64,000 nt of DNA from Actinomycetota bacterium (GTDB lineage: Bacteria > Actinomycetota > Acidimicrobiia > Acidimicrobiales > JACCXE01). Both the position numbers and the translations under genes were made by a program. The first letter of the stretch is position 1; each line of letters opens with the position of its first letter. This document shows positions 34,977 to 37,171 of this stretch, piece by piece. The stretch spans positions 490 to 64,489 of the forward strand of contig JBEHXL010000013.1 of NCBI GenBank assembly GCA_048498715.1, given 5' to 3'. The notes beneath the pieces are model-generated. The model was not told the DNA's origin. It did no database searches and was given only the letters and a program-made list of their open reading frames with translations.

Positions 34977-35456
34977 GTGATCCGACGCGTCGTTTCGACA
35001 ACGACGCTGCTCGTAGCAGTGGCCCTCGTCCTCGTGACGGGGGCCGCTGCGCGTGCGGAAACCGAAGTTACGGAGCCGCCGCCGACGACAGCTACTACGG
35101 AGCTTCCGACCACCACAACCGTCAAGGCCACGACGACCACGGCCAAGGCCACGACCACAACCGCCAAGCGAGTCACAACCACCACCTCCCTCGTGACCAC
35201 GTCGACCACCGAGGAGGAAATCCTCGACGTCGAGACGACGATCGACGAAGAAACGACGACGACGTTCCCCGAGACCACCACGACGACGGAGCCCGAGAAG
35301 AAGGACACCAGCGTCAACGGGGCGCTGGTCGGCTTGCTCGTCCTGCTCATCCTCGGGATCGGAGCGGGTGCGGTCGTGGTGTTCCTGCGGATGCGCCGCG
35401 ACTCGGGCTTCGACGACACCGACCCGTACGACGACGGGTACGACGAGAGGTTTTGA
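34977..35456 (+). CDS. Thr-rich secreted, membrane-anchored hypothetical protein
   Basis: Signal peptide (ARA), poly-Thr stalk, C-terminal TM helix plus acidic tail. Confidence 0.75.
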   Translation: MIRRVVSTTTLLVAVALVLVTGAAARAETEVTEPPPTTATTELPTTTTVKATTTTAKATTTTAKRVTTTTSLVTTSTTEEEILDVETTIDEETTTTFPETTTTTEPEKKDTSVNGALVGLLVLLILGIGAGAVVVFLRMRRDSGFDDTDPYDDGYDERF

Positions 35457-35869
35457 TGCTCATCGCCGCCGCCGTGCTCACGGCGATCATCGTGTTCGCG
35501 ATCGCCGCCGGCGCGGTCGGTCGTGAAGCGCACCTGCTCGACGCGGTGCCGGCGCGTCCCGTGTTCGATCCCGACGAGGCGACGACCTGGATCGCTGAGC
35601 ACCTGCCGCCCCAGACGACCGCAGCGTTGTCCTACGCCGAAGTCGGTCAGATCGTCAACGCAACGCTTGACTTGCTGCGCTCGCATGCGGGTGTCGCCAA
35701 GACCAGCGGCGAGGTTCCTGACGCCGGTGAAGAGGTCGTCGTCGACGAGGATTCCGCCGTTGCCCACGCCGCCGGATCGCTGCCGGTCGAGCATGTGCGG
35801 TTCGTCGTTCAGGCCGTCTTCTCGTATCTCGAAGTCATTGGTGCCGTCGGTCCTGTGAAGGACTCGTAA
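35456..35869 (+). CDS. Hypothetical protein with N-terminal TM helix
   Basis: ATG overlaps upstream TGA (TGATG); MLIAAAVL...YLEVIGAVGP. Confidence 0.7.
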   Translation: MLIAAAVLTAIIVFAIAAGAVGREAHLLDAVPARPVFDPDEATTWIAEHLPPQTTAALSYAEVGQIVNATLDLLRSHAGVAKTSGEVPDAGEEVVVDEDSAVAHAAGSLPVEHVRFVVQAVFSYLEVIGAVGPVKDS

Positions 35870-35947
35870 ACGCGTCGTAAATGACACCACCTCGGCCCGA
35901 AATCGTGATTCAATTTCGGCACCAGAGAAAGGAGGTGGTCCAAGACA

Positions 35948-35989
35948 ATGCACTTAGTTTTTAGGACTCTGGAGGTGGCTGGCCGCTAA
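35948..35989 (+). CDS. Candidate micropeptide MHLVFRTLEVAGR
   Basis: ATG 11 nt after AAAGGAGGT; uses rare codons TTA, GTT, TTT, AGG, ACT. Confidence 0.35.
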   Translation: MHLVFRTLEVAGR

Positions 35990-36104
35990 GGCGGCAAGTC
36001 GGACCACCCGGCGAATACTCGCCAGTCACCCTCGTTGAAGTCCCGGGCAGGATCTCGTCCTCCCTGCGCAGTCCGGTCAACGGGAACTTTCGACAAACAT
36101 TGTT

Positions 36105-36138
36105 CGGAGGGGTCGCATCGTTCGGTGCGGCCCCTCCG
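36105..36138 (+). terminator. Stem-loop (terminator-like, no U-tract)
   Basis: CGGAGGGGTCGCATC-GTTC-GGTGCGGCCCCTCCG. Confidence 0.6.
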
Positions 36139-36167
36139 GCGCGTCTGCGGATAAGTTGAAAAACGTC

Positions 36168-36383
36168 ATGAGTCGACCGCTTCGTTTCGAACATCACCGC
36201 TTTGTCGGCGACAAGCGCTCGCAGGTCGTCTACGACCTCGATGCTGCCGACGTCGACGCCGCCAAGATCGACGAGCTGATGAGCGCGCAGACCTACATCT
36301 GCTTCGGCCCCGACCGCCTCGCTGAAGCCCGTAACCGTGGCTACAAGCTGTGGAAGGGTCACGCGGATCGCAATCCTGAGTAA
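36168..36383 (+). CDS. Small hypothetical protein (distantly Ada metal-binding-domain-like pattern)
   Basis: RFVGDKRSQVVYD...CF...EARNRGY; TAAGTT -10 upstream. Confidence 0.7.
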   Translation: MSRPLRFEHHRFVGDKRSQVVYDLDAADVDAAKIDELMSAQTYICFGPDRLAEARNRGYKLWKGHADRNPE

Positions 36384-36391
36384 GCCGCTGT

Positions 36392-37171
36392 ATGGCTGAA
36401 CCGGTCGTGCTGCCAGGCGGGGCGGGCGATCTCGTCGGGCAACTCGCGTTGCCACCGGGTGCCGAGCGCGGCGCGGCGGCCGTCATCCTCTGCCACGGGT
36501 TTCCCGGCACACCCAAAGGAGCTCTGGCCAGCGGTGAGGGGTACGCCGAGCTCGCCGAGTTCATCGCAGACGAAACCGGCGCGGCGGTGCTGACCTTCAC
36601 GTTCCGGGGCTGTGGCCAGTCCAAGGGCGAGTTCTCGCTGCAGGGGTGGATCGACGACTTGGGCGTCGCGATCGACTGGTTGACGACGACCCGCGACGTG
36701 GACCACGTCGGGGTGGCCGGCTTCTCGGCCGGTGGTGGCGTCGCGCTGTGCCGGGCCGCCAAAGACAAGCGCGTCCGATCGATCGCCGGCTTCGCCGTGC
36801 CGGCGACGTTCGACACCTGGGCTCAGGAACCCCGCAAATTCCTCGACCGCTGTCGCGAGGTCGGCGTGGTGCGCACCAAGAACTTCCCCGAGGACATCAC
36901 TGCGTGGGCCGCGGAACTCGTGGACAACAGCCCGCGCAAGGCGATCTCGATGATGGGCCGTCGCCCGGTGCTGCTGGTGCACGGCAAGGACGACGAGACC
37001 GTGCCGGTCACCGCGGCGCGCGAGTTGATGGCGGCCGGCGGCGAGATGGGTGCGATCGACGTGCGCGTGTTGTTCGGCGCGGTGCATCGCCTGCGCCACG
37101 ATCCACGCGCAATCGCGATTTTGGTCGGGTGGGCCTCGCGGCTGGGGCCACATAGGAGCGACAGCGAATGA
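36392..37171 (+). CDS. Alpha/beta hydrolase
   Basis: CHGFP, RGCGQS, GFSAGG, VHGKDDETVP. Confidence 0.85.
   Translation: MAEPVVLPGGAGDLVGQLALPPGAERGAAAVILCHGFPGTPKGALASGEGYAELAEFIADETGAAVLTFTFRGCGQSKGEFSLQGWIDDLGVAIDWLTTTRDVDHVGVAGFSAGGGVALCRAAKDKRVRSIAGFAVPATFDTWAQEPRKFLDRCREVGVVRTKNFPEDITAWAAELVDNSPRKAISMMGRRPVLLVHGKDDETVPVTAARELMAAGGEMGAIDVRVLFGAVHRLRHDPRAIAILVGWASRLGPHRSDSE

Follow-up and report, generated by a model that had tools for sequence, protein, structure and literature searches.

A predicted Acidimicrobiia orthologue of the small RNA Ms_IGR-5, with a 17-nucleotide complement to the 16S rRNA tail and a conserved micro-open reading frame

Two described groups of bacterial RNA stand closest to the locus reported here. 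Ms_IGR-5, which Rfam (RF02471) lists as a plain small RNA (sRNA), was reportedly first found as an sRNA bound by heterologous Hfq. Its homologues carry significant ribosome footprints in Mycobacterium abscessus and M. smegmatis (PMC4974804), and the M. smegmatis RNA corresponds to ncMSMEG15794c (PMC10454040); the transcript has been validated by RNA sequencing in Streptomyces lividans (PMC8079986), and S. avermitilis has two sRNA units that match Rfam, of which it is one (PMC8780764). The second group is formed by rreB and rreR of alpha-proteobacteria (Hahn et al., RNA Biol 2017, PMC5711450). There, rreB is a 165-nucleotide (nt) messenger RNA (mRNA) with a 17-nt perfect complement to the tail of 16S ribosomal RNA (rRNA) and a 14-codon open reading frame (ORF) that begins with GTG; it co-sediments with the 30S ribosomal subunit, is weakly translated, and is stabilised once its start codon is replaced. 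The paper makes no mention of Actinobacteria, Mycobacterium, Streptomyces, Rfam or CC2171, the last being the Rfam family (RF01867) that appears to belong to the rre group. In the literature searched, we found neither a paper linking Ms_IGR-5 with the rre family nor a description of a 17-nt complement or an ORF in Ms_IGR-5. Here, we examine a 64,000-nt stretch of DNA from an Actinomycetota bacterium of the order Acidimicrobiales (assembly GCA_048498715.1, contig JBEHXL010000013.1, positions 490 to 64,489; hereafter the window, whose own numbering is used throughout), and within it a structured RNA of about 220 nt that an original prediction, made from the letters alone, had picked out. Judged from its sequence, this RNA is an Acidimicrobiia orthologue of Ms_IGR-5, one more member of a known family and not a new kind of RNA. 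We consider it probable, with moderate confidence, that it is a ribosome-engaging small mRNA, on which a 30S subunit would dock, displace a helix termed P2 and decode a micro-ORF of constrained geometry.

Family membership and the 16S complement

A scan of the whole window against Rfam at gathering thresholds gave no match. Under E-value thresholds, positions 35921-36090 match RF02471 at 42.7 bits (E 2.4e-8) across model positions 1-184 of 184, and congeners at the same syntenic place score between 45.6 and 50.5 bits with this model, whose gathering score (45 bits) is an operational cut-off and no biological feature. The RF02471 consensus opens with a long Shine-Dalgarno (SD)-like stretch and includes GAGGUGgCugCccGCua. 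The novelty that the original prediction had claimed, provided that no described Rfam family took in the RNA, is therefore lost, and for the window itself the result is an ordinary one, a further family member. The prediction also depended on homologues in related genomes, and orthologues are indeed present, one each, in 28 of the 41 genomes of the order (9 of the 41 above the cut-off) and in 10 of 10 other genomes of the bacterium's own taxonomic family. Across the phylum, RF02471 matches occur in 44 of 151 sampled genomes, 19 of them above the cut-off, a count that includes four unpublished genomes (G041, G058, G088 and G159). The copy number in the window's own genome is one, as it is in every other genome with a match except G061, which has two matches on separate contigs. 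In the reciprocal direction, 26 order-level sequences were used to build a model of the 5' domain (R1), which recovers all 55 of the loci searched, from which the unpublished L047 and L057 were omitted, including loci that score 165-186 bits with the Rfam model. The remaining weak Rfam matches were taken as chance or as due to the SD stretch only: Prion_pknot, sX14, CC2171 (18.6 bits, E 0.098), and RAGATH-5, which scores 20.7 bits, where the cut-off is 50, on the terminator's minus strand.

The original prediction had singled out a 17-nt complement of the 16S 3' end with one G-U pair, and this claim is borne out. The only 16S gene detected in the genome ends in ...GCGGCTGGATCACCTCCTTTCT (tail ...TGGATCACCTCCTTTCT), and AGAAAGGAGGTGGTCCA, at 35926-35942 on the plus strand, is the exact reverse complement of that tail save for one A>G change, so that the pair is retained as G-U. 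We scanned the whole assembly (4,257,600 bp in 131 contigs, both strands) for contiguous pairs in register with the 16S tail, and two sites genome-wide reach at least 15 pairs: the antisense of the 16S gene and 35926-35942. Three sites reach at least 14 pairs, 11 at least 13, and 37 at least 12. The complementarity is real and lies far beyond chance, it is conserved across the phylum, and its core is invariant among 54 aligned sequences. The next best complement in the genome is 14 nt long, at C8:52001 on the plus strand; it is followed by a 13-nt complement, GGAAAGGAGGTGA, at C14:60406 and again 5 kb away at C14:65397, both on the minus strand.

Species-representative genomes were searched with a pattern scan, which returned at least 120 stretches, of which 80 loci were listed, 68 of them Actinomycetota-titled. 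Among the matches listed, three loci from Acidobacteriota (L106, L118 and L080) and one from Syntrophobacter (L105) have the full Ms_IGR-5 layout, that is P1, the ..EV.. ORF, the stop at +5, GAATCC and P3. Because two of these, L106 and L118, exceed the RF02471 cut-off (51.6 and 49.6 bits), the name 'Actinobacteria sRNA' is too narrow. Four Rhodobacterales loci (L083, L086, L087 and L110) are of the rreR type, with an 18-codon GTG ORF, a weak CC2171 match and no Ms_IGR-5 match, and a similar layout with the ORF in another frame is seen in one locus from Planctomycetota (L064) and two from SAR86 (L120 and L123). These Rhodobacterales, Planctomycetota and SAR86 loci have a long SD complement in which the wobble position is a G, and after it an ORF of 13-18 codons in a different frame.

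Conserved helices and the micro-ORF

The features of the RNA are as follows.
35921-36142, plus strand: small RNA, about 220 nt long, extending from the predicted 5' end through the terminator hairpin, placed from the Rfam match, the -10 position and the terminator.
35926-35942, plus strand: 17-nt 16S complement ('17c region', an extended SD); in the consensus fold 35926-35936 are single-stranded and 35937-35941 lie within P2.
35948-35989, plus strand: micro-ORF MHLVFRTLEVAGR, ATG plus 12 codons plus TAA, the stop at 35987-35989.
35922-35925 with 35969-35972, plus strand: helix P1, CCAG with CUGG, from RNAalifold.
35937-35941 with 35964-35968, plus strand: helix P2, GGUCC with GGAC[C/U], from RNAalifold.
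35974-35982 with 36022-36030, plus strand: helix P3, GGUGGCUGG with CCAGUCACC, from RNAalifold with the pairs checked on the window sequence; consensus 3' strand CCAGnCACC.
35982-35995, plus strand: stop-codon hairpin P4, with the stop codon in its loop, inside the junction closed by P3.
35998-36002 with 36008-36012, plus strand: hairpin Hx, loop ACCAC, 94.6% paired.
36001-36008, plus strand: internal anti-SD mimic GGACCACC, which pairs with the SD tail GGUGGUCC in the single-sequence minimum free energy (MFE) fold.
36010-36014 with 36019-36023, plus strand: hairpin H6, 78.5% paired.
36033-36038 with 36077-36082, 36043-36046 with 36073-36076, and 36047-36051 with 36063-36067, plus strand: hairpin P5 of the 3' domain, from the structure line of the Rfam model.

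The three-helix fold of P1, P2 and P3 comes from RNAalifold on 28 order-level sequences. P1 and P2 enclose the SD bulge and an A/U-rich loop with the start codon: in the 17-nt complement, the initial 11 nt form the bulge between the two helices, and the final 5-6 nt supply the 5' strand of P2. Within P2, the G that forms a G-U pair with 16S takes part in a G-C pair, and the one row with an A at this position has a compensating U. In an alignment of 54 distinct rows fitted to R1, 96.1% of pairing cells are paired, compared with 31-43% when the partners are slid, and the covariation score is 0.316, compared with 0.03-0.06 for slid partners; none of 500 shuffles reaches the observed values. The order-level MAFFT alignment, which is not fitted to a model, gives 96.8% against 28-52%. 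Overall, 12 of the 23 pairs are changed on both sides, including three of four in P1 (in 26, 28 and 14 of the 54 sequences) and five of nine in P3, and P2 is nearly invariant. P1 and P3 are covarying helices of the family, kept by compensatory change, and supply the covariation on which the original prediction had staked itself. The hairpins that it had drawn at 35982-35995, at 36010-36023 and at 36037-36091 are present, the last of them at about 36033-36082; Hx and H6 are mutually exclusive alternatives. Positions 36013-36018 read GAAUAC (family consensus GAAUCC), and GUCC in the apical loop of P5 (36057-36060) is near-invariant. The fold of 35921-36142 has a z-score of -3.52, and the minus strand is less significant (z -2.73).

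The same consensus fold leaves two GGAGGUGG copies exposed or half-exposed, as would suit an sRNA that acts in trans by base pairing, its G-rich SD-like stretches pairing with C-rich mRNAs or with C-rich sRNAs such as 6C; the reported discovery of Ms_IGR-5 as an Hfq-bound sRNA points the same way. Yet the match to the 16S tail extends over the whole single-stranded length, beyond a G-rich seed, and a trans-acting sRNA leaves the conserved ORF described next unexplained. We regard this explanation as highly improbable.

The micro-ORF, as originally drawn, runs from the ATG at 35948 to the TAA ending at 35989 and contains a second GGAGGTGG at 35971-35978; both are confirmed, and the ORF proves to be conserved. 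The stop lies exactly five codons after a conserved GAG in 57 of 57 sequences, with TAA, TAG and TGA all used; this set includes two unpublished sequences that are omitted from the set of 55 used for the counts that follow. An ATG, GTG or TTG lies in frame no more than 10 nt after ..GGTCC in 30 of the 55, versus 0 and 2 in the other two frames, and when CTG and ATH starts are added the figure becomes 55 of 55, versus 5 and 10. In-frame stops are found in none of the 55 sequences, the frame being open throughout, and in every one of them the stop that ends the ORF falls within a hairpin loop. The spacer, of 25-38 nt, falls into all three classes modulo 3 (38, 12 and 5 sequences), and the start-like codon tracks the frame; the start codon lies 1-7 nt after ..GGTCC across the family, and 6 nt past the complement in the window. 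Among the matches listed in the pattern scan, 66 of the 68 independent Actinomycetota-titled loci keep the stop position and 63 of the 68 pass the start and open-frame test. Two loci (L098 and the Gaiellaceae locus L134) have, by eye, a 13-codon ORF that lies in another frame relative to GAGGTG and ends in the same hairpin.

These regularities bear on the reading in which the RNA is a pure decoy, a sponge or sensor for the 30S anti-SD that is never decoded and whose open frame is a structural by-product. Such a reading draws on the 17-nt complement being the most conserved element, on many members having only near-cognate starts, and on rreB, which binds 30S strongly yet is translated weakly (PMC5711450). 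However, structure alone predicts neither a start that tracks the frame across spacer lengths, nor the absence of in-frame stops from all 55 sequences, nor interchangeable stops at one place, and the same paper reports that removal of the start codon alters the stability of rreB and that its overexpression has no growth effect. We judge a pure decoy unlikely and continue to favour a ribosome-engaging mRNA that is decoded.

What is decoded would matter little as a peptide. Conservation is confined to C-terminal residues whose codons are helix strands, the N-terminal half being free, and the residue shifts (L, R, C, P, S, E) where P1 covaries. Since the peptide changes with the helices, selection appears to act on an ORF of fixed geometry and not on the peptide. 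A functional micropeptide gene, or a type I toxin, would account for the conserved ORF, and the RreB and RreR peptides are described as conserved inside their clades (PMC5711450). Against this stand the residues that change as P1 covaries and the free N-terminal half, together with a product of 12-17 residues that is not hydrophobic and for which no antisense partner was seen, and we think this the least probable explanation of all. The type I toxin proposed in the original prediction is not supported in particular, as such toxins are hydrophobic, are usually longer than 20 amino acids and are accompanied by an antisense RNA; here the peptide has 13 residues, has no hydrophobic stretch and is not conserved. 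The prediction had also drawn attention to rare codons, and TTA (0.3% of Leu), AGG (2% of Arg) and TTT (6.5% of Phe) are indeed rare in the genome when counted over 1175 long ORFs of high third-position GC content, a filter that overstates their rarity somewhat. The functional role suggested for them does not follow, since the rare codons differ between genera and are explained by their placement in the variable A/U-rich P2 loop and the 3' strand of P2.

Transcription unit, conformers and neighbouring genes

Three further features define the surroundings of the RNA.
35906-35914, plus strand: predicted promoter -10 region TGnTTCAAT (extended -10 type), at a position conserved in the family.
36104-36139, plus strand: terminator-like GC-rich hairpin with a 16-bp stem and the loop GUUC, from a stem search and the fold, followed by GCGCGTC.
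36168-36383, plus strand: ORF for a 71-amino-acid protein (MSRPLRFEHHRF...), probably a separate unit, syntenic in the order only.

A TANNNT hexamer ends 16-17 nt 5' of GGAGG in 24 of 55 members, and elsewhere in the upstream stretches such a hexamer turns up just four more times. At exactly this conserved -10 place the window and its congeners read TTCAAT or TTTACT, and upstream of the -10 the window has an A-rich stretch and ATGACA (35881-35886). The conserved -10 place puts the 5' end at about 35921, which is the first base of both the Rfam match and P1, and with a 5' end there ACCACCTC (35886-35893) and the CCGAAAT/ATTTCGG stem would sit in promoter DNA. The unit had originally been started at 35886, and this boundary is not confirmed: ACCACCTC and the stem lie between a -35-like element and the conserved -10 position. 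The SD tail had further been given two mutually exclusive partners. The upstream one, ACCACCTC with its CCGAAAT/ATTTCGG stem, was rejected as a family feature, being probably promoter DNA and not conserved outside the genus, and the downstream pairing of GGUGGUCC with GGACCACC stands, as it occurs in the MFE fold. The mimic is a Watson-Crick complement of 7-10 nt in about 20 of 27 order-level sequences and of 8-11 nt in four rows of other families, and it is at chance level in the rows with the highest Rfam scores and in several other families. The anti-SD mimic is real, an accessory at the level of the lineage and not a feature of the family.

At the 3' side, the terminal stem of the original prediction is confirmed, with 16 bp at 36104-36139. 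A hairpin of differing sequence occupies the terminator place in 23 of 28 order-level loci by a plain stem search, which undercounts bulged hairpins (a sliding-window RNAfold had picked unrelated structures). A U tract follows the hairpin in lower-GC relatives, and the hairpin in the window's own genome has none. A simple promoter and terminator scan found nothing, being blind to promoters of this type and to terminators that lack a U tract. A GCGCGTC-like heptamer directly after the terminator (36140-36146 in the window) is conserved in many order-level loci despite the differing hairpins and is found also in L004, L006, L008, L011, L017-L021 and L024. From these signals we predict that the single-copy RNA is transcribed on its own, from a housekeeping-type promoter to a hairpin terminator. 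It is present in RNA libraries, and an RNA-library contig that covers 35934-36079 with two differences is compatible with a 5' end at 35921.

By tblastn, the gene for the 71-amino-acid protein lies directly 3' of the RNA in 21 of the 28 order-level loci and in none of the 27 phylum-level ones. A -10-like box lies between the terminator hairpin and this gene, and RNA-library contigs from two runs of one study cover 36181-36422; several other lineages have a convergent gene next to the RNA. On the 5' side, ORFs of 159 and 137 amino acids at 34977-35869 on the plus strand share TGATG at 35454-35458, an overlap suggestive of translational coupling, and the 137-amino-acid gene precedes the RNA in 22 of 28 order-level loci. 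None of the flanking proteins of 71, 137 and 159 amino acids has a Pfam or NCBIfam match, the last having two sub-threshold Pfam matches.

Alternatively, the RNA might be a cis-acting leader of the 71-amino-acid gene, in which translation of the micro-ORF decides read-through of the 36104-36139 hairpin. The gene lies on the same strand and directly downstream at those 21 order-level loci, the hairpin in this genome lacks a U tract, and RNA-library contigs lie over both units. However, the gene is absent from all 27 loci of other classes, several of which have a convergent next gene, a -10-like box separates hairpin and gene, and homologues in Streptomyces have been mapped as separate sRNA transcription units (PMC8780764). 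In addition, no contig bridges 36080-36180, which is at best weak evidence; the upstream gene is likewise uncovered. With the 71-amino-acid gene restricted to the order and convergent neighbours elsewhere, a cis-leader role is unlikely as a function of the family, and we give it little credence for this locus, if slightly more than a trans-acting sRNA. A leader-peptide attenuator, which the original prediction had also entertained, is not supported: no regulatory codon is conserved, the variable codons not being the same from genus to genus, and conservation of the gene downstream is limited to the order.

Ribosome engagement and relation to known systems

With these alternatives set out, we return to the reading of the RNA as a ribosome-engaging small mRNA. 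In the proposed sequence of events, a free 30S subunit would dock on the single-stranded part of the complement (35926-35936), the duplex would lengthen by displacing P2, and this displacement would set the AUG at 35948 in the P site. Decoding of the 13 codons would then carry the ribosome across P1 (3' strand) and across P3 and P4 (5' strands), to termination at the stop in the hairpin loop. In this lineage, GGACCACC may sequester the SD tail and so give a closed conformer of nearly equal energy. The selected trait would be engagement of the ribosome and the refolding or decay that results, and not the peptide, as in the 'ribosome-regulated expression' demonstrated for rreB. Direct action of the ribosome on this RNA is most likely. 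Among the options of the original prediction, a 30S-binding RNA and a dual-function sRNA with a micro-ORF fit this picture, given the conserved complement and ORF, the footprints in two mycobacteria and the co-sedimentation of rreB with 30S; its type I toxin and classical leader peptide do not.

Several observations weigh against this reading. As to identity, the window's score of 42.7 bits lies 2.3 bits below the RF02471 gathering score. As to structure, the MFE fold of 35921-36142 (-98.6 kcal/mol) has the SD tail GGUGGUCC sequestered, and the fold with P1, P2 and P3 enforced reaches -93.7 kcal/mol, values that indicate two conformers of similar energy. As to the transcript, a 208-nt metatranscriptome contig that matches 35871-36076 with 0 differences starts 50 nt 5' of the predicted end, and the RNA-library contigs, which come from two studies, show neither strand, ends nor level. 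As to decoding, 25 of the 55 sequences do not have an ATG, GTG or TTG start, 20 of them having CTG and five having ATT, ATC or ATA, and three Solirubrobacterales loci (L096, L102 and L107) have ACG at the start position of an open frame; given the missing canonical starts, translation may be very weak or absent in those lineages. Finally, 30S binding, translation and refolding are inferred from conservation and from the analogy with rreB, and the function of rreB itself is termed 'elusive', its overproduction leaving growth unchanged (PMC5711450).

The family is single-copy and persists throughout a phylum and outside it, and its match to the mRNA-binding tail of the ribosome is as long as such a match can be. 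What is defined here as conserved is a complement that is half exposed and half buried, the length and stop of an ORF irrespective of its peptide, and two helices that a ribosome must open. An 'sRNA of unknown function' is thereby turned into hypotheses open to testing in M. smegmatis, Streptomyces or other tractable hosts, and an Rfam sRNA is linked to the rreB class. A wider proposal is that Ms_IGR-5 and rre form one ancient, cross-phylum 'ribosome-docking' class, which would report or adjust how many 30S subunits are free, or how available the anti-SD is. In Actinobacteria, such a class might then tip translation between its SD-led and leaderless modes, by holding a ribosome on a 17-bp SD duplex and on a second, in-ORF SD fixed 15 nt before the stop. 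On this joint reading its members would be those seen in Actinomycetota, Acidobacteriota, Desulfobacterota, alpha-proteobacteria, Planctomycetota and SAR86; we offer it tentatively and think it doubtful.

Of the systems with which the locus can be compared, leader-peptide attenuators and translated upstream-ORF leaders resemble it in that translating a short ORF would pull apart helices formed with downstream strands. Unlike leader-peptide attenuators, it has no regulatory codons and no cis gene kept family-wide, it has its own terminator, and its neighbours are convergent in several lineages. The likeness to Ms_IGR-5 is that of a family member, with a full-length covariance-model match, the blocks formed by the 17-nt complement, GAGGUGGCUG, GAAUCC and the GUCC loop, and a single-copy, intergenic location. 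The window differs from other members in a shorter insert between the stop hairpin and P3, and its lineage has in addition the internal anti-SD mimic and a separate terminator hairpin.

The sequence relation between the rre RNAs and Ms_IGR-5 is weak, 30S binding has been demonstrated for rreB alone, and the two differ in other respects. In the rre RNAs, the complement's final base is also the G with which the GTG start begins, whereas in the window the complement ends at 35942 and the ATG begins at 35948; the rre peptides are conserved within clades, whereas the Ms_IGR-5 peptide is dictated by the helices. The parallels (PMC5711450) extend to an independently transcribed small mRNA with a 16-17 nt complement to 16S, an SD of which part is hidden in a conserved hairpin and the 5' seed is single-stranded, and a short ORF (14-18 codons in rreB/rreR) whose start is weak or non-AUG in many members. 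The complement of at least 16 nt to its own 16S, upstream of a small ORF, that typifies the rre RNAs is present in the window with 17 nt and 13 codons. By analogy of layout, rreB and rreR are the closest functional analogue of this RNA.

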